Virus record (IMG/VR): IMGVR_UViG_3300035034_000924
Coordinates: 1-64,000 of that record
Length of the DNA: 64,000 nucleotides
Source of the DNA: a virus
Strand: one strand, 5' to 3'
Under the pieces are notes generated by a model. It had not been told where the DNA came from. It worked only from the letters and a program-made list of their open reading frames with translations, and did no database searches. Shown here one piece after another: positions 34,243-42,047 of this stretch (within the stretch, counting starts at the first letter, position 1; each line of letters opens with the position of its first letter). Position numbers and translations under genes: made by a program.

Positions 34243-37200
34243 ATGGCTGATAAGTACCCAATAAAAGCAGTAAGTGCTAGCGGAGACGCTACAGGCCTAT
34301 CTGAGTTTGAAGAAGGGGATGCGGTCCCTATTGATGCTGGAGGTACAGGCGCGGTAACTGCCGAAAGCGGGCTAGCTAACCTAGGGGGCGCTACCGAGAG
34401 CTTTGTTGATGCCGCCGTAGCCGCTGCAGTCGCTATGCTAGTGGGTTCTGCCCCGGCTGACCTAAACACTATCGAAGAGATTGCTAGTGCCTTGGGTAAT
34501 GACCCGGACATACTGACGAATTTTTTAAGCACAGCGAATGTCGTAAACAACCTGACGTCAAGCGACACCGAGGCACCGCTTAGTGCAGCGATGGGTAAGG
34601 CGTTAAAGGACCAGCTCGACACATTCAACCCGCTGCCTAACTTCACCACGAATGGCTCCTTCTCTACGTTGAATCCGACGCTGCTATTTCACGAGACAGA
34701 CGCTACGACGGACAACGGCAAGTGGCGTATTGCGATAGACAACGAGCAATTCAACCTAGATGTAGTCAGTGATGATGGATTCACTTCCGAGTACTTTTTG
34801 CGGGCCGAAAGATCTTCTGCGAACGTAACGGACGTCACGACTAACGGAGAATGGTACTTCAACGAAGACATCACGGCCTTGTCCAACATCTCTGCTTCGT
34901 CTCTGGAAATTACCAACCTTGCGCTATTCAAGAGCACTGTCCAACTGGACGAGAACGCCTACGGTACTATGGTGGGTAGTAGCACTGCAGGTTTTGTTAT
35001 CGAGGGCGCGGGTAGTGTCACCGACTTCGTTCTACGAAACTCCCTTAGCCAAGACGTGTTATGGGTGCCGGAAGGCGGGCTGCAGATAAACGTTAAGTCA
35101 GATATCTTCTCAGAAGGTTCCGTGATATTCGGTGACGTGTTCAACACCTATGCGACCTTCGAAGGGGACGGCATAGAAGGCGTTCTGCTACAAGGTTTCG
35201 GTGACACCAATGACTTCATGGTCAGGAACCGATCCGGGGTAGACACTCTTTGGCTGGATTCAGACACTACAGAGTTCACCTTTGCTGGGGACCTATCATT
35301 TTCCGCCATGAACCTTAAAGTAGGCGGGGTCAGTGTTTTATCTTCCTCTAGTTCCGAGGCGTCATTCTTCTCTGGTGTTCTAGAGGTTACGCCCACGAGC
35401 GTACAGATAAATGAAGGCGTTGGCCTAGACTTCTACAATGGTAACGGCGTGATTGAGTGGTCTGATGCCTTTGATACCTATGGCAGTATCTCTGGCGGCA
35501 GCGCCGGCATGGTTATTCAAGGCTTTGGTTTCTTGGGTGACATTATCCTTAGGAACTCTGCAGCAACCGACGTAATGTTAGTACCTACCGGAACTACTGA
35601 CGTTGAGTTCAAAGGCGATGTATATCTGGAAAGTGCGTTATACCATGATAGCGCTGAGGCCATCGTCTACGGTAATGGCAACGAGGTATATCGAGTAAAC
35701 AACTCGGGTCTGGTAATTACCAGCCAGATCCAATTAAACGATAGCAGGTTTATAAGGTTTGAGAACCAAGATGGATTCACTATAAGCGGCTACATTGGTC
35801 TGATTAACGCGTCTAATGAGCTAGCCATACAGCACGACACGGAACTGTCAGTGACTATAGGAGCAGCCGAGACTTTTACAGTAAACGGCAGTCTGGTGAC
35901 TTCGCAAGTAGATGTTTCTATTGATACAGGGGATTTGTACCTCAATAGCCCTGACGGGCACATATGGTTTACTGAAACCGACGCAGCGGCAGATAACGGA
36001 AAATGGGACTTCAGATACTATGGCGGGAAATTCGAATTTAGGACAGTAAACGATGCTGTTACTGGTGCTAGCACCATTATGGATGTTAGCCGCACGGGTA
36101 TCGGCGTAGACCTGATAAGCTTTTTTGCTGAAACTACTTTCTCTGACCATATTACGCTTGGTAATAATAAAGCCATCTTCATTAAAAATTCAGAATCTCA
36201 AAGCTACCCAGTTATCCAAAGGTTTGGCGACGAGGTCTACATAGACTCCTACGGCAACTCTGCCGGTAATGGTGCGATTATACTTAGGACAAGAAATGGG
36301 TCAGGCGCTGTGGCAACTGCCTTGCAGCTAAATGCAGAGAGTCAACAAGCCTTTTTTGGTGGAATTATATCTTCCTCAATCAACAACGCTGGAGCGGTAA
36401 CCTTAGGTGCAGCATCCGACATCCAGCCGGGTATGAGAATATTCAATGCAGCTACGAACTTTTACATGGGGCTAAACACTAGCGCAGGTACTGCGTTTTC
36501 GGGCTCTACTGCCAATTACGCTTATGTTGGGACTAGTTCTAACGGTTTAGAGTTTGCCACAGCAAATGTGGTCCGTGCAAAGTTCGACACTTTAGCTAGG
36601 CTGCACCTCTTTACTGAACTTAGTTTAGACTCGAATAAAGTTATTGCCCTTGAGGGGCAAGGCTCGGACACGTACTTCTATGGTGCAGGCACAAACAACA
36701 TCTATTTTGTTACGGGTGGTGCAAACGTACTTCGTCTTGATAATAACCAAGACATCGCAGCGTATGGCCGGATTACTATACCCCATACTGACGGATACTA
36801 TTTCGGTAACGGGTATATTGGCGAGCCAGACGTTAACTGGGGTTGGTTACTTAAACCAGATACCGCATCAGGGGGCGCAGCCAACGGAGGTATCCTAAAT
36901 ACAGCTGGTGTAGCCATAATGCTATTTTATGACGCTAATAAAAGCGTCACTCTCAGTACCAGCAGCACATTACACTCCGGCTTTAGGGTTGATAATGGCA
37001 CAAATCTGCTCTGCGAGATCTTAGGCTTTTCAGGTGCAAACGACAGCGGGGGTGTCAGGCTGTATTCTGGCGGGGTTCCTCGAACCGATTTGTACTCTGA
37101 CCAACCTTCTTACTTCTACCACGGTATTAGAATCCCTGTCACATCTAAGGTGTTTCTGGATAGTGACGCTGGGATGGATTCCTATATTTACGCTTCTGGT

Positions 37201-38319
37201 AATGACCAAATAGACATAGTGGCTGGCGGCATTGTTAAGTCAAGGTGGTCCTCGGGAATCAGCACTATTTATGGCTACACCCAATTCAACAGATCGGCTG
37301 GCGTCAACGACGCTCAGATAGAGCTATTCGGCGGGGATGCCGATAGCGGCGCGGCGCTGACGTTTCACAGAACGAGTGTTAAGATCTGGTATCTAGGTAT
37401 GCGAGGGGACTCCGCAGCGTTTACCCTCAGAAACGATAGTGCAGGTGGCAGTTTAGTTTTTGGTGTAAACAGTGCAGGTTCTTTTGATTTCCATACTGGC
37501 GTTAAACTTAGTGACGGGGTGCCAACAACTTCCGGTGACCTTGCCATGGGTAACTCCTATGTTTCCTCCTCTATACGTATCGGTTCGTTCGGCTCTTACA
37601 TAGGCCGGGACGCGGGCACTGGTGCTATCCGCTACCGCTCAGCACAGAACTCCCACCACTTCACTGGTACAAATGTAATATTGGACGAACATTTAATAGT
37701 ACAGGGCGGGAAGTTCATTTACTTGGACGGAGGAAGCGATACATACATAAGCCAGCTTAGTGGCAATGAAACCAGCGTAGTTTCTGGCGGGACAGAGGGG
37801 CTTAGGGTGGGAAACAACTTCACCTATACAAGAAACTTCCGGCCTTTCGTTAATAATCTGTATGCCATGGGTGATGCTTCCTTCGCGTGGACGGTAGTTT
37901 ACGCAACTAACGGAGCCATACAGCCTTCCGACCTGCGCCTAAAGAACGTAACTAAAAGGTTAACGCCAGAGGAAGCACTTTCCTTTGTCAGAGACACAGA
38001 GTCGATAGAGTACTACTGGAAGGACGATGCAAGTAAGGTGTATAGGCACGGTTTCGGTGCGCAGGAAATCTACGTCTTGCTTAAAAAGCACGGTATGAAC
38101 CCCGACAAAAACGGCCTAGTAAGCCACGATGTATCGTCAGACAAGTGGTCCATGGGCTACTCGGAAATGGTGTCTATAAATTCTGCAGCTATCCGAGGAG
38201 TGGCTTCTATGGTTGACAAAGTGGTGGTGTCTATCGGTTCGCATAACAAAAAAATAAAAGCTCTGGAAGAAAAAGTCGATACGTTAGAAGAAGAAGTTCG
38301 TATACTTAAGGCGGCGTAA
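34243..38319 (+). CDS. tail fibre with C-terminal intramolecular chaperone (peptidase S74)
   Basis: AP..LNT..EIA.ALGNDP; VVNNLTS.....PLSA.MGK.LK; C-terminal SD.RLK...Y.WK...HGF.AQE and a coiled coil. Confidence 0.9.
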   Translation: MADKYPIKAVSASGDATGLSEFEEGDAVPIDAGGTGAVTAESGLANLGGATESFVDAAVAAAVAMLVGSAPADLNTIEEIASALGNDPDILTNFLSTANVVNNLTSSDTEAPLSAAMGKALKDQLDTFNPLPNFTTNGSFSTLNPTLLFHETDATTDNGKWRIAIDNEQFNLDVVSDDGFTSEYFLRAERSSANVTDVTTNGEWYFNEDITALSNISASSLEITNLALFKSTVQLDENAYGTMVGSSTAGFVIEGAGSVTDFVLRNSLSQDVLWVPEGGLQINVKSDIFSEGSVIFGDVFNTYATFEGDGIEGVLLQGFGDTNDFMVRNRSGVDTLWLDSDTTEFTFAGDLSFSAMNLKVGGVSVLSSSSSEASFFSGVLEVTPTSVQINEGVGLDFYNGNGVIEWSDAFDTYGSISGGSAGMVIQGFGFLGDIILRNSAATDVMLVPTGTTDVEFKGDVYLESALYHDSAEAIVYGNGNEVYRVNNSGLVITSQIQLNDSRFIRFENQDGFTISGYIGLINASNELAIQHDTELSVTIGAAETFTVNGSLVTSQVDVSIDTGDLYLNSPDGHIWFTETDAAADNGKWDFRYYGGKFEFRTVNDAVTGASTIMDVSRTGIGVDLISFFAETTFSDHITLGNNKAIFIKNSESQSYPVIQRFGDEVYIDSYGNSAGNGAIILRTRNGSGAVATALQLNAESQQAFFGGIISSSINNAGAVTLGAASDIQPGMRIFNAATNFYMGLNTSAGTAFSGSTANYAYVGTSSNGLEFATANVVRAKFDTLARLHLFTELSLDSNKVIALEGQGSDTYFYGAGTNNIYFVTGGANVLRLDNNQDIAAYGRITIPHTDGYYFGNGYIGEPDVNWGWLLKPDTASGGAANGGILNTAGVAIMLFYDANKSVTLSTSSTLHSGFRVDNGTNLLCEILGFSGANDSGGVRLYSGGVPRTDLYSDQPSYFYHGIRIPVTSKVFLDSDAGMDSYIYASGNDQIDIVAGGIVKSRWSSGISTIYGYTQFNRSAGVNDAQIELFGGDADSGAALTFHRTSVKIWYLGMRGDSAAFTLRNDSAGGSLVFGVNSAGSFDFHTGVKLSDGVPTTSGDLAMGNSYVSSSIRIGSFGSYIGRDAGTGAIRYRSAQNSHHFTGTNVILDEHLIVQGGKFIYLDGGSDTYISQLSGNETSVVSGGTEGLRVGNNFTYTRNFRPFVNNLYAMGDASFAWTVVYATNGAIQPSDLRLKNVTKRLTPEEALSFVRDTESIEYYWKDDASKVYRHGFGAQEIYVLLKKHGMNPDKNGLVSHDVSSDKWSMGYSEMVSINSAAIRGVASMVDKVVVSIGSHNKKIKALEEKVDTLEEEVRILKAA

Positions 38320-38888
38320 TGGAGATTAACTTAGGCACCCTCTTTAAACAGATTGGACCCGTCGCTGCGGTACTACTGGGCATGCTGTTCATGTACTTTA
38401 ACCCGACGCAAGAAAGCCAGTTCAATGAAAATCTGATAAGCAGGCTGAGCAACGCAGAGAATAAAGCGGATCAATGCTTGAACGAAAGCATAGTAATAAA
38501 AAACCAGCTGAAGGATATGCAGTTCCGGTTCACTATCATGCGCGGGTCACAGGAATCACTACCATGGCCTAGCTGGATGAAAGACGGCAGCGGTAAGGTC
38601 CTGTTTGCTAACAGCGCCTACGAAAAAACTTACTTAAAACCTTTGGGGTACGAGTTAAGTGACTACGTAGGATTCAGGGACGAAGCTGTGTTTTCCGATA
38701 TTACTGCACAGTCGTTCAGGGCCAACGACCTGCTAGTGTTCGAGTCAGGGATTATCATTGAGGTCACTGAAATGGTGGACTCTCCGGGGGGAGAAGCCCA
38801 GCCAGTACAGGTCTACAAGTACCCCATTAAGGTAAGAGACGTGGTTGTAGCAGTAGGCGGGATGACCATACCAGCGAAGGTTCTATAG
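38319..38888 (+). CDS. membrane-anchored PAS-domain protein
   Basis: TM, coiled coil, then SLP.P.W.KD.SG..LFAN.AYE...G..D..VF....A..FRAND..V...K.P. Confidence 0.8.
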   Translation: MEINLGTLFKQIGPVAAVLLGMLFMYFNPTQESQFNENLISRLSNAENKADQCLNESIVIKNQLKDMQFRFTIMRGSQESLPWPSWMKDGSGKVLFANSAYEKTYLKPLGYELSDYVGFRDEAVFSDITAQSFRANDLLVFESGIIIEVTEMVDSPGGEAQPVQVYKYPIKVRDVVVAVGGMTIPAKVL

Positions 38889-38890
38889 TT

Positions 38891-39208
38891 ATGATGGGAA
38901 TGTGGCCAGTTGAGCAAGCGATTTGGGTAATTGCAAACGTTTGCATAGGTGTATCGTACACTTTGGTGTTGGCCCACTACAGCATCCACACTGTACCTAT
39001 CTTACTAAACCAAGGTTTCGTATATTTTTGCGGGATGGGACACTTCGGTATGGTCATATGGATGGCGCTACTACCACATAACTACCTCGTGTTTCTGACG
39101 GTTTGTATCTTGGACAGTATGACTGCATTAGTCAGTGTAGCTTCTGCGTGGTACGCTTGGCGAAGACGAGAACGAAAAGGGGAAGCCAATGCTGTGCATA
39201 GAAATTAA
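38891..39208 (+). CDS. 3-TM protein resembling the ETR1 ethylene-binding domain
   Basis: N..IG.SY, F..FCG.GH and TALVS.ASA match ETR1 D..IAIAY, FIVLCGATH and TAVVSCATA. Confidence 0.6.
   Translation: MMGMWPVEQAIWVIANVCIGVSYTLVLAHYSIHTVPILLNQGFVYFCGMGHFGMVIWMALLPHNYLVFLTVCILDSMTALVSVASAWYAWRRRERKGEANAVHRN
38932..38945. repeat. dispersed palindrome, exact
   Basis: TGCAAACGTTTGCA. Confidence 0.9.
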
Positions 39209-39590
39209 ATCGAAACGTAAGATCTTTGGTAACAACGGTATTGCATGGCTTTGGCCTTTCATATTCGTCTGGGGGAGTCACCCGCAATACATTCGGGTAA
39301 GAGAGAACGAGACGGGCCACAACCTTCAAGCACCAGAGACGTGGGTAATAGGGTTCCCGTTCGCGGCATACGCAACCTATGTGCTGGATTACCCCATATG
39401 GTGGATGTTTTTGTTGACCTACTGCTCGTTTGCTATAATCTACGGGATCATGTCTTTAGTGGCTAAACTGCAGGGCGGGGACAGCTACATAGATAACGTA
39501 ATGGAACAGGATTCTAGGCAGTGGGACGATGGCAACCTAGGCAGACGTCCTAGGTTCTACTGGCTCAAACTTTTATTTAGAGGAAAATAG
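39189..39590 (+). CDS. membrane protein with a degenerate zincin-like motif
   Basis: L.PFIFV...NETGH..Q...N.ME; HExxH reads NETGH. Confidence 0.5.
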   Translation: MLCIEIKSKRKIFGNNGIAWLWPFIFVWGSHPQYIRVRENETGHNLQAPETWVIGFPFAAYATYVLDYPIWWMFLLTYCSFAIIYGIMSLVAKLQGGDSYIDNVMEQDSRQWDDGNLGRRPRFYWLKLLFRGK

Positions 39591-40493: not shown

Positions 40494-40955
40494 GTGGATA
40501 TCACGTACTCGATGTATCGTTACAACTCAGGCGATGATTCGACCCTAGGTTTTCTTACTCTCTACAGACAGCTGCTTTGCTATACTTGTGAAGACGAGTA
40601 TCGAGAGCACAAGGTCATGCACGAAACCCGCATCCCTGCGGGCAGATACGAAATCAAGCTAAGGCCTGCCGGAGGTATACACCCCCGATACGCCAAAAAA
40701 TTCCCAGATATTCATAAAGGCATGTTGTGGCTACAAGACGTGCCAAACTTCACATGGGTTTATATCCATGTAGGTAACACGGACGATCATTCGTCTGGTT
40801 GCATTCTACTAGGTGCCAGCCCTGTTCCCGACAAAAAGGATGGCGGCGGGTCAGTAGCCAACTCAGTAGATGCGTACGAAAAGGTGTACCCCATGATGGC
40901 CGATGCGATAGAGAATGGTGATCGCGTATACATCGAGATAGTGGATGTTGCATGA
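40494..40955 (+). CDS. DUF5675-family putative endolysin
   Basis: ST.G.L, CYT.ED, ETRIPAG.Y, DVP.F..I.IH.GN...S.GCILLG; heads the holin-spanin cassette. Confidence 0.75.
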   Translation: MDITYSMYRYNSGDDSTLGFLTLYRQLLCYTCEDEYREHKVMHETRIPAGRYEIKLRPAGGIHPRYAKKFPDIHKGMLWLQDVPNFTWVYIHVGNTDDHSSGCILLGASPVPDKKDGGGSVANSVDAYEKVYPMMADAIENGDRVYIEIVDVA

Positions 40956-40965
40956 TGGAGTACGT

Positions 40966-41247
40966 ATGGCTGACGATGGGTATAACGACGGGGTCATTGA
41001 CCTAAAAGACGTGGAAAGAATAGGGACTAAAGTATCTAACTTCATGGTAGAGCACAGGGTACTCCCTAGGCTCTTTGTCTGCGTATTCGGGGCCATATTC
41101 ATAGACATGAATTTTTGGCTGCAAGAGATGGTGGAAACAAGCAAGCTAGAAGGCGGTTACTTTGTCGAGGTTTACGTAGGAGCCATGGTAGGTGGTTTTG
41201 TAGCCATGGTAACCGGATACGCCAATAGCGGCGAGAGGAAGGAATAG
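40966..41247 (+). CDS. putative holin
   Basis: Two TM segments; between endolysin and spanins; start re-assigned to ATG 40966 (GGAG RBS). Confidence 0.55.
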   Translation: MADDGYNDGVIDLKDVERIGTKVSNFMVEHRVLPRLFVCVFGAIFIDMNFWLQEMVETSKLEGGYFVEVYVGAMVGGFVAMVTGYANSGERKE

Positions 41248-41248
41248 C

Positions 41249-41695
41249 ATGGTACGCATTTTAGCAGGAATTTCTGTCACTCTACTTTTGTGTTCACTGG
41301 CTCTAGCCACGGTACTCAATCGCAGCATAGAACGGGCCGCAGATGTAGAAGGTAAGCTCGAAGTCGCGGAGGCTATTAGTAAAGAAAATAAGCGTACTAT
41401 GAACATGATGCAAAGTGCCCGGATCGACGCAATCCAGTTACTAAAAGAGACCGAGCATAGGAACGAGAACATTCGCCAGATATCGGAAACGAGATTGCTG
41501 GAGATACAAAAGCTAAGGGAGACCGAAGACCGTGAAGCACGTAAACTACCTTTTGCGCGTGGCAACGCTAGCCATGATCGTATTGTTGAGTACCTCATGC
41601 GCTTCGAGGGAAGTGCAGATGGATATCCACTTCATACCAGTGATGCCGGAGCCAGTAATACTGGAACGCCCAACCCCACCCAAGGTGGCGAGTAG
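41249..41695 (+). CDS. i-spanin (Rz-like)
   Basis: N-terminal TM plus coiled coil; overlaps the following lipoprotein gene. Confidence 0.7.
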   Translation: MVRILAGISVTLLLCSLALATVLNRSIERAADVEGKLEVAEAISKENKRTMNMMQSARIDAIQLLKETEHRNENIRQISETRLLEIQKLRETEDREARKLPFARGNASHDRIVEYLMRFEGSADGYPLHTSDAGASNTGTPNPTQGGE

Positions 41696-42047
41696 CTACC
41701 CCGCCCCGATAGGCATCACCAGCACAGAGGTCCGATACTACCTCGACGTCTGTGATCGCTACAACGACCCGCAGGAAGATCCTGAGTCCATACTAGAAGA
41801 AACCCAGCTGGCGTATTACGATGCATGCGATTGGCTTATATACGGCCATCCGGTACAGCAGAGGCTGACTATCGAAACCATACTCAGCAAGATGGCTGAC
41901 TACAGCGAACGTATGCGGGCTCACGTAGACCACCTAGAAAAGGTTATACGCATCCAATACGAGAACAGCCTAGAGACACGCAAAGCTGTTGAAGGAGCGG
42001 AAATGTCTAAAACTGAAGAAAATAGAAAGTTCTTAGGTTTGTTCTAG
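41532..42047 (+). CDS. o-spanin (Rz1-like lipoprotein)
   Basis: Signal peptide with lipobox-like LLSTSC, then a Pro-rich segment; starts inside the Rz-like gene. Confidence 0.65.
   Translation: MKHVNYLLRVATLAMIVLLSTSCASREVQMDIHFIPVMPEPVILERPTPPKVASSYPAPIGITSTEVRYYLDVCDRYNDPQEDPESILEETQLAYYDACDWLIYGHPVQQRLTIETILSKMADYSERMRAHVDHLEKVIRIQYENSLETRKAVEGAEMSKTEENRKFLGLF

Follow-up and report, generated by a model that had tools for sequence, protein, structure and literature searches.

The ethylene receptors Arabidopsis ETR1, Synechocystis SynEtr1 and Azospirillum AzoEtr1 carry ETR1_N, a domain of three transmembrane (TM) helices marked by Tyr32 on helix I, a residue essential for ethylene binding, by the sequence FxxxCGxxH on helix II and by TAxxS on helix III. 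The Cys65 and His69 of helix II have been assigned as Cu(I) ligands (PMC10266040, PMC6586836), Ile35, Pro36 and Ile62 have been reported as essential for ethylene binding (PMC6586836), and ethylene and Cu(I) binding assays have been carried out on AzoEtr1 (PMC11819568). Among phages, the VqmA of phage VP882 couples a host autoinducer to lysis and offers a precedent for a phage PAS receptor informing the lysis decision (PMC8284805, 10.1101/2023.06.05.543668). ETR1_N and PAS domains usually form the input ends of larger signalling enzymes, kinases and cyclases; here we describe a phage locus in which they appear as bare inputs on two coupled genes with no enzyme attached, in the portion of the genome that closes with the lysis genes. 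The locus lies in a 64,000-nucleotide (nt) stretch of viral DNA, hereafter the window, that corresponds to positions 1 to 64,000 of IMG/VR record IMGVR_UViG_3300035034_000924, a linear virus record of 85,398 bases estimated to be 89% complete. The sequence evidence suggests that this gene pair encodes a kinase-less, two-protein membrane sensor or regulator of lysis, a statement to which, taken as a whole and with the lysis role included, we assign a probability of about 0.5. The two genes are as follows.

38319..38888, + strand: membrane-anchored PAS protein, 189 amino acids (aa) (PAS_4 match, AlphaFold2 [AF2] model, Foldseek and VIA structural comparisons)
38891..39208, + strand: stand-alone ETR1_N-like three-helix membrane protein, 105 aa (top Pfam match, hhalign, residue table, AF2 model)

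The best Pfam match of the 105-aa protein is ETR1_N (PF25487; 15.3 bits, E 0.025), with residues 24-91 aligned to positions 23-89 of the 97-position profile. The protein has no PHROG assignment, no match in INPHARED at the DNA or protein level, and no relative in a word-indexed search. A HMMER scan of 1.84 billion representatives with the same query returned 13 matches at E ≤ 0.001, seven of which, including the query itself, were kept. These seven short proteins define a rare family, in which the six relatives are 94-112 aa long and share 31-38% identity with the window protein. The remaining six matches, much longer at 352-2547 aa (E 1e-12 to 1e-3), were considered as fused relatives and rejected as spurious, their alignments consisting of many short stretches around CGxGH; the four that were read are repeat proteins (three RCC1-like, of the GxxGQLG type, and one other), and P0006 and P0012 were dropped on the multi-stretch pattern alone. 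A word-index search for longer proteins with the family profile also yielded no fused form of the phage family, which is weak evidence that none exists. ETR1_N is the top Pfam match in five of the seven family members; one relative (P0009) exceeds the Pfam cut-off with 27.8 bits over profile positions 2-87 of 97, another (P0013) reaches 25.4 bits, and two (P0011 and P0014) have no ETR1_N match by Pfam.

To relate this family to bona fide ETR1_N domains, we assembled a canonical set from 401 genomes of the class that includes the sole identifiable host, a Pseudomonadales metagenome-assembled genome (MAG; G001). Eighteen of these genomes scored above the Pfam cut-off, contributing 24 matches, 23 of them in frames of at least 398 aa and one in a 148-aa frame. 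An hhalign comparison of the seven-member family against 20 canonical domains gave a probability of 96.5% (E 9.5e-10) over 86 columns encompassing all three helices. In the reverse direction, the family profile searched over the 401 Pseudomonadales genomes recovered G001's own copy and 18 weaker matches (E 1e-6 to 6e-4), 16 of which fall in frames of at least 401 aa, like the canonical fused proteins; the match in G009 lies at the same place as a canonical domain (L015). The homology to the ETR1 domain proposed in an earlier note, made from the window sequence alone, therefore holds by way of relatives of the window protein, through the profile alignment and through P0009.

Structural prediction agrees with this assignment at the level of overall fold. 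The AF2 model of the 105-aa protein, computed from the merged alignment, is a three-helix bundle (helices 6-29, 35-60 and 65-104) with a predicted local distance difference test (pLDDT) score of 92.9 and a predicted template modelling (pTM) score of 0.76, and the motifs quoted in the earlier note for a three-TM open reading frame (ORF) are all present. No ETR1_N structure was found in the PDB with either the family or the canonical profile, and Foldseek of the model returned nothing at E ≤ 0.001; the best BFVD row was a 289-aa viral protein, the length of the Maribacter phage protein Molly gp065 discussed below, at E 8.6e-3 and 28% identity. A PQ-loop/SemiSWEET identity was rejected, as the nearest ESM Atlas cluster scored 0.89, below the lead threshold of 0.9, and Pfam gave no PQ-loop match at E ≤ 1. 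The best PDB fold rows, the mitochondrial pyruvate carrier among them, had E values of at least 1.2. Because lysine and arginine residues are abundant in loop 1 and the C-terminal tail of the family, and not in its N-terminus or loop 2, a distribution that fits the ETR1 topology, the protein is predicted to span the membrane three times with its N-terminus outside and its C-terminus inside, as ETR1 does. In contrast to the receptors, however, it is encoded by a phage and stands alone at 105 aa, without a GAF, PAS or kinase domain on the same chain.

The residues of the binding site are conserved in a distinctive manner. Aligned to ETR1, the window protein has N16 (38936-38938) at the position of Asp25, Y23 at Tyr32, C47 (39029-39031) at Cys65, H51 (39041-39043) at His69, D75 (39113-39115) at Lys91 and T78 at Thr94, followed by a basic C-terminal tail. 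W12, Y23, F43, C47, G48, G50, H51 and T78 are invariant in all seven family members. The Cu(I)-ligand positions Cys65 and His69, which form the CxxxH motif that the earlier note had proposed to trace through homologues, are accordingly kept in 7/7, as are Tyr32 (7/7) and Thr94 (7/7), and the TAxxS sequence of helix III is retained in the family. The Ile62 position is occupied by Ile or Val in every member, and that of Ile35 by Val, Phe or Ile.

The polar positions of helices I and III have changed. At the Asp25 position the phage family has Asn in five of seven members, with Ser and Gly once each, compared with Asp 15, Glu 2, Asn 2 and His 1 among the 20 canonical domains; the same 20 domains have Lys 16, Leu 2, Arg 1 and Asp 1 at the Lys91 position. 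A survey of 1,221 sequences reported Asp in 93.55% and Asn in 3.67% at position 25 (Azhar et al., PMC10266040), and the same source describes a D25N variant that is functional, with lower affinity and much faster ethylene release, as well as co-evolution of D25 with K91 and a polar bridge proposed between them (PMC10266040). Given that Asp25 has become Asn and Lys91 has become Asp or Glu in the phage family, the phage type would represent a coupled change, with the carboxylate carried on helix III instead of helix I. The sole canonical domain with Asp at position 91 (L014, in G341; ORF of at least 620 aa) also has Asn at position 25 and belongs to an ordinary ETR1_N-PAS-PAS-GGDEF protein, which suggests that Asn25 with Asp91 is a natural alternative configuration of the polar pair; BLASTP detected no similarity between the PAS domain of the phage and those of L014. 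As a separate observation on the canonical set, the Cu-ligand Cys65 is replaced by Ser (FSGATH) in the ETR1_N domain of a hybrid kinase (L012, in G146), a domain that scores 123.9 bits.

The second protein of the pair was analyzed along the same lines. Residues 79-171 of the 189-aa protein match PAS_4 (PF08448) with 26.7 bits against a cut-off of 23.1, and relatives score 39.5 and 42.5 bits; the chain ends 18 residues past this match, and Pfam assigns it no output domain. Its layout comprises a TM helix at about residues 12-27, a long helix at 29-76 and the PAS domain at about 79-180. The AF2 model reproduces helices at 5-27 and 29-76 (pLDDT 54-66) and a PAS fold at 81-180 (pLDDT 85-95), with which Foldseek found at least 326 PDB matches at E ≤ 0.001; among the matches listed, all are PAS or LOV domains. 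The TM segment, the PAS domain and the lack of an output domain described in the earlier note are thus upheld, and what it called a coiled coil is, more cautiously, a predicted long helix of modest model confidence. The closest relative in the word-indexed search, P0003, shares 53% identity. PAS_4-type domains are normally cytoplasmic, and lysine and arginine residues directly follow the TM helix in the homologues of phages phi14:2 and MA9V-2 (see below); on these grounds the 189-aa protein is predicted to be a single-pass membrane protein with its N-terminus outside and its PAS domain in the cytoplasm. We consider the molecular identity of both proteins, one a PAS protein and the other ETR1_N-like, to be highly probable, and the claim that both are stand-alone input modules, tightly linked and devoid of a kinase, is borne out by the Pfam, hhalign and residue analyses.

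Within the PAS superfamily, sequence comparison points to a specific relative. A profile of three close homologues of the window PAS protein, searched against the PDB, retrieved only VqmA of Vibrio cholerae (6UGL, 6KJU and 6IDE; E ~8e-4). With a profile of six phage PAS proteins VqmA was again the sole PAS protein at E ≤ 1 (E 5.5e-5), the five remaining rows being coiled-coil proteins that matched the N-terminal helix. In the VIA comparison, which like that of Foldseek was headed by PAS and LOV structures, the three VqmA entries took ranks 3, 6 and 7 of 998 (Z 11.6-11.9; 21-23% identity). In VqmA, the ligand 3,5-dimethylpyrazin-2-ol (DPO) is reported to be held mainly by F67, F99 and K101, with F67A and K101R abolishing binding (bioRxiv 10.1101/2019.12.19.881847). 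The HMMER alignment, a 26-bit match, equates VqmA K23, Y36, F67, D71 and K101 with K88, Y101, F133, D137 and K167 of the window protein, so that five VqmA residues align with conserved positions of the phage PAS proteins, and K88, F133, D137 and K167 are invariant in 6/6 of the latter. In this same 26-bit match, the F99 position is occupied by Val in four phage proteins, Phe in one and Gly in one; VqmA H87 and H97 are not conserved in the phage PAS proteins. Six unrelated bacterial PAS domains fused to canonical ETR1_N served as controls, and none of them (0/6 at each position) has the K23-, Y36-, F67-, D71- or K101-type residue in a MAFFT alignment, a result that depends on the quality of that alignment.

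The phage PAS protein differs from VqmA in that it is tethered to the membrane by an N-terminal TM segment and long helix and has no helix-turn-helix (HTH) DNA-binding domain: Pfam gave no HTH family match in the 189-aa protein. Furthermore, VP882 was not among the INPHARED records that tblastn retrieved for the window PAS protein at E ≤ 0.01. What is new here, as judged from alignments, is that VqmA entries are the only solved sequence relatives of these phage PAS domains and that the F67 and K101 contacts are conserved. The link provides a weak but specific lead that the PAS pocket binds a small molecule of the same general kind.

To establish whether the two genes travel together, we inspected the genomic contexts of the family members. 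Three are readable, namely the window, an IMG/VR contig (L001) and a bacterial contig (L002); P0008, P0009, P0013 and P0014 lie only on Logan contigs of 1.1-5.6 kb. In each of the three, the PAS gene directly adjoins the ETR1_N-like gene, with gaps of 2 nt (window), -4 nt (L001) and -4 nt (L002), as the earlier note had anticipated for relatives of the locus. L001 is a 59,465-base contig from a record that is 100% complete, and it carries P0003 165 nt after a tail-fibre-like gene; P0003 overlaps by 4 nt the gene for the 96-aa family member P0004 (36% identity to the window 105-aa protein, E 1e-22), and a DUF5675 gene follows 3.1 kb downstream of the pair. In L002, the family member P0011 lies in a prophage on a 4.17-Mb contig of G001. 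The start of its gene shares 4 nt with the gene for a TM-helix-PAS protein of 208 aa (PAS_4, 42.5 bits), and around the pair lie podovirus-type structural genes (capsid-like, a fibre-like gene of 1596 aa and a faint match to T7 gp14). A tail-fibre-like gene precedes the pair in 3/3 contexts, at distances of 0, 165 and ~1,430 nt, and the ORFs downstream of the pair are unrelated between the window and L001. Scans of viral contigs with the window protein, P0008, P0009, P0013, P0014, a PAS profile (A3) and the PAS protein of L002 revealed no context beyond that of L001, and profile A3 revealed none in metagenome contigs.

The surroundings of the pair in the window comprise the following features.

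34243..38319, + strand: tail-fibre gene, 1358 aa (Pfam Phage_fiber_rpt 41.6 bits and Peptidase_S74 24.9 bits, both above cut-off)
38933..38944, no strand: copy of the dispersed palindrome GCAAACGTTTGC, inside the ETR1_N-like gene (window motif count)
39189..39590, + strand: 133-aa hydrophobic ORF whose membership of the module is uncertain (ORF list, no family match)
40494..40955, + strand: DUF5675 protein, candidate endolysin (Pfam 92.1 bits)
40945..41247, + strand: 100-aa ORF with two hydrophobic segments, candidate holin (position and hydrophobicity; phrog_10198 at E 5e-4 only)
41249..42047, + strand: overlapping i-spanin-like (41249-41695) and o-spanin-like (41532-42047) ORFs (phrog_214 Rz-like spanin at E 0.0069; weak)

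The stop codon of the tail-fibre gene overlaps the ATG of the PAS gene in the sequence TAATG (38319), and the stop codon of the PAS gene is followed after 2 nt by the ATG of the ETR1_N-like gene. A simple scan of the stretch from the fibre gene to the pair revealed no convincing promoter or terminator, with 6 promoter-like sites in the region against 10.0 expected. The last 20 nt of the ETR1_N-like gene are shared with the 133-aa ORF, which neither Pfam nor PHROG assigns to a family and which has no counterpart in contig L001. Between the pair and the DUF5675 gene there are 1,285 nt and three ORFs without assignment (133, 112 and 127 aa). DUF5675 has been grouped by structure with C82 peptidases (C82/YkuD-like) among phage lysins (bioRxiv 10.64898/2026.04.11.717860), and the o-spanin-like ORF has a Cys after a signal-like segment. 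The placement of the pair between tail-fibre and lysis genes given in the earlier note is therefore a fair description, with the fibre gene directly upstream and DUF5675 1,285 nt downstream.

Exact copies of the palindrome GCAAACGTTTGC number 11 in the window, and a further 7 copies have one mismatch, compared with 0.11 expected. Its 18 sites extend over 1329-61504 (for instance at 2279, 4867, 8833, 10517, 14219, 20670, 25855, 38933, 45407, 50412 and 53912), inside as well as between genes, with a spacing of roughly 1-6 kb. The codon for the Asn that replaces Asp25 (38936-38938) does lie within one copy (38933-38944), as had been noticed earlier; since Asn is also present in 4/6 relatives, Asn16 is not a by-product of the palindrome.

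Relatives of each half of the pair were identified in cultured phages. When INPHARED was searched by tblastn for the window PAS protein, seven records were returned, corresponding to Cellulophaga phage phi14:2 (two records, E 3e-9), Chryseobacterium phages MA9V-1 and MA9V-2 (E 5-6e-6) and three Brevundimonas jumbo phages (E 6-8e-3). The phi14:2 protein g078 (209 aa) and MA9V-2 gp249 (MA9V2_249), annotated as "PAS fold protein" and "regulatory protein", share the architecture of the window protein, a TM segment followed by a long helix and a PAS domain, as well as its motifs. They differ from it in that no ETR1_N-like gene is found in their genomes and in that they sit directly at or inside lysis cassettes: g078 overlaps the start of the endolysin gene g077 (GH19), and MA9V2_249 lies between a 223-aa lipoprotein-like gene and a 132-aa TM-plus-helix gene, 763 nt after a GH108 gene. 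The order of genes in this MA9V-2 region (L049, 2635-4808), namely GH108, lipoprotein-like, TM-helix-PAS and TM-plus-helix, resembles a lysis cassette with spanin-like parts, here in a phage of Bacteroidota. In Brevundimonas phage Domovoi (L050, 3956-4886), a TM-less PAS gene overlaps the next gene, which encodes a coiled-coil protein with a C-terminal TM segment; the membrane anchor seems to sit on the partner chain.

A canonical ETR1_N query against INPHARED returned eight records, all of them Maribacter phages Molly_1-5 and Colly_1 (Molycolviridae), at E 1-3e-4. Molly gp065 (289 aa) scores 60.9 bits against ETR1_N, above the cut-off, aligns with the phage family at 95.8% by hhalign, and belongs to the same subtype as the window protein, with ANxxIGVSY, FCGIGH and Asp at the Lys91 position. 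As in the window, it is located between tail genes and an endolysin. It ends 3 nt before an Amidase_3 endolysin gene and is preceded, with a 4-nt overlap, by gp064, which encodes a TM and coiled-coil protein. The Molly/Colly arrangement differs from the pair described here in that ETR1_N is fused to a C-terminal region of ~165 aa without assigned family, the partner has no PAS domain, and the endolysin gene directly adjoins. A PAS domain in the C-terminus of gp065 was considered and rejected, hhalign of PAS profile A3 giving a probability of 0.08 and profile A5 finding nothing in the Molly genome.

Output-less forms of ETR1_N exist in bacteria as well, in a minority of cases. Among nine full-length canonical proteins, eight carry a kinase or GGDEF domain and six a PAS domain, and one (L005) consists of ETR1_N and PAS only. 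Two chromosomal genes (L035, 1393-1983, and L040, 1402-1986) encode proteins of 194-196 aa with a canonical ETR1_N and a C-terminal coiled coil, without an output domain. The L035 gene is divergent to a REC-GGDEF-like gene. A stand-alone 138-aa ETR1_N of 40.8 bits (L022, 1399-2263, in G020) is found at a prophage end, with Leu and Thr at the Asp25 and Lys91 positions; it is preceded by a fibre-like ORF and accompanied by an overlapping 168-aa TM and coiled-coil ORF, and an integrase fragment is nearby. These four bacterial forms resemble the phage pair in being kinase-less and in lying beside, or being fused to, coiled coils and PAS domains. L035, L040 and L005 differ from it in being chromosomal and canonical (Asp25, Lys91, Pro36 and HGxC). 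Relative to the common bacterial ETR1_N-PAS input module, the phage pair is divided over two chains in reverse order, with a separate TM helix for the PAS domain.

A lysis role is our best guess for the pair because relatives recur at the endolysin genes of Maribacter, Cellulophaga and Chryseobacterium phages, because the pair occupies a late-operon position, and because no tyrosine integrase is found in the window's record (89% complete) or in that of L001 (100% complete), an absence that favours a lytic role over a lysogenic one. Under this reading, the pair would be expressed late, together with the tail-fibre and lysis genes. The long helix of the 189-aa protein would carry a cytoplasmic, VqmA-type PAS domain whose pocket probably binds a small molecule. 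The 105-aa protein would contribute a diverged ETR1_N bundle that retains the Cys/His pair by which ethylene receptors hold Cu(I), together with Asn on helix I and Asp or Glu on helix III. The two proteins would associate in the membrane, as a sensor with its transducer, and would contact the lysis machinery, acting on the holin or on endolysin release, so that a chemical, metal or redox cue would gate or time lysis. Since both chains lack an enzymatic output, any effect must be exerted through protein-protein contact. We infer the complex, the binding of metal and ligand, and the lysis target. The nearest mechanistic parallel is T4 lysis inhibition, in which small non-enzymatic phage proteins bring about a cue-dependent delay of lysis: the antiholins RI and RIII sense a cue, which in T4 is superinfection, and delay triggering of the holin T by binding it directly. 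There is no sequence or fold relationship between these proteins and the pair, for which such a mechanism is hypothetical. Lysis inhibition has been described (10.1101/2025.11.12.688109).

Several observations weigh against this reading. The lysis role is drawn solely from gene neighbourhood, and the spacing is loose, with three unrelated ORFs before DUF5675 in the window and four genes in L001; the proximity to lysis genes foreseen in the earlier note holds at 1.3 kb in the window and 3.1 kb in L001, but no recognisable lysis gene was seen near the pair in L002. The window, moreover, already has a plausible holin and spanins, and the pair is not needed to complete the cassette. The two halves are also separable: ETR1_N was found by Pfam and the family profile in none of phi14:2, MA9V-2 and Domovoi (0/3), and no PAS domain was found in the Molly genome with profile A5, genome-wide negatives that are soft because the six-frame Pfam search missed the window's own ETR1_N-like gene. 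The Brevundimonas PAS relative has no TM segment and is not near recognisable lysis genes. As for the proteins themselves, the 105-aa protein falls below the Pfam ETR1_N cut-off (15.3 vs 27 bits), the charges of the window PAS protein leave its own topology undecided, and the sequence link to VqmA is weak at 26 bits, with VIA tying VqmA with many other PAS domains within 1 Z unit (top Z 12.7). Finally, in the phage family Pro36 is kept in 0/7, the Lys91 position is charge-reversed (Asp in six of seven, Glu in one), and the canonical N-terminal segment HGxC..W.P is cut to W-P; with Pro36 lost, Lys91 reversed and HGxC missing, ethylene binding or even copper binding may have been lost.

Among the alternatives, the one that survives best is that the ETR1_N-like protein takes part in the membrane lesion directly, as a component of the holin or antiholin type, with the Cys/His pair serving a structural or oligomerising function and the PAS protein acting as an accessory regulator. 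Its 105 aa, three helices, predicted N-out/C-in orientation and strongly basic C-terminal tail recall class I holins; among the Molly genes translated, no membrane proteins other than gp065 and its TM-helix partner adjoin the endolysin; and P0013 has a faint Phage_holin_3_6 match (E 0.059). However, the canonical holin position between endolysin and spanins is held in the window by a separate two-TM ORF, and the 105-aa protein has no significant holin family match in Pfam or PHROG. Furthermore, the invariance of Cys, Gly, Gly, His, Tyr and Thr at 31-38% identity, along with the co-varying Asn and Asp, argues for a retained cofactor site and not for a generic helix. We regard this explanation as unlikely.

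It is less probable still that the pair acts as a decoy or modulator of host signalling, by forming hetero-oligomers with sensor kinases or cyclases of the host that contain ETR1_N or PAS, or by sequestering their ligand or copper. Canonical bacterial ETR1_N domains, present in 18/401 sampled genomes of the known host's class, are almost always fused to signalling outputs (8/9 to a kinase or GGDEF domain, 6/9 to PAS), and both modules dimerise, ETR1 domains as reported (PMC10266040) and PAS as in the VqmA dimer. Yet no canonical ETR1_N (best score 13.9 bits) and no phage-type PAS relative besides the prophage's own copy are present in G001, the only host genome that could be identified; this disfavours a decoy. 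The phage family also lacks the N-terminal HGxC segment of canonical domains, and a role internal to the phage is more in keeping with the late-operon position and with the location of relatives beside endolysin genes in other phages. Of the two functions put forward in the earlier note, lysis timing or a decoy that jams host signalling, the former thus gains from the finding that relatives of each half abut endolysin genes, and the latter is left without support. A membrane module for superinfection exclusion or receptor masking, of the kind often found beside tail-fibre genes, would suit the tail-fibre-like gene that precedes the pair in 3/3 contexts and the predicted inner-membrane location of both proteins, but is the least probable of the three, given that no tyrosine integrase is found in the window's record or in that of L001, that a pair translationally coupled to a late structural gene is unlikely to be expressed early or in lysogeny, that exclusion proteins would not be expected to conserve cofactor and ligand residues, and that the cultured-phage relatives lie at endolysins and not at receptor-binding genes.

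Returning to the pair as a sensor or regulator of lysis, a more specific version can be conceived, although we hold it to be doubtful: a chemically gated, post-translational lysis clock, in which the Cu-site domain, borrowed from ethylene receptors, would sense a membrane-soluble gas, copper or redox state, the VqmA-like PAS domain would sense an autoinducer of the pyrazinol type or a similar one, and both would act directly on the holin. If so, burst timing would follow host density or the light- or oxygen-linked chemistry of the water column, and the scattered ETR1_N-like and TM-PAS genes at the endolysins of unrelated phages would constitute one undescribed class of lysis regulator.

In a literature search, in which supplementary tables were outside the scope, neither ETR1-like proteins of phages nor PAS proteins of lysis cassettes were the subject of any publication found; one account (PMC6324907) mentions viral histidine kinases only. 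The locus contributes the division of the pair over two genes, with a PAS domain resembling VqmA, as well as the Asn25/Asp91 subtype of ETR1_N and a recurring TM-helix partner. The phage family is in addition a natural experiment on the ethylene-binding site, one that is relevant to current models of how ETR1 coordinates Cu(I) and passes on the signal, and the existence of cultured relatives makes bench tests feasible. A role in lysis, if true, would provide the first testable function for phage ETR1_N-like genes. Furthermore, if the pair does tune lysis, it would represent a new way for phages to read their surroundings, one that acts on the membrane machinery and not, as VP882 VqmA does, on transcription.

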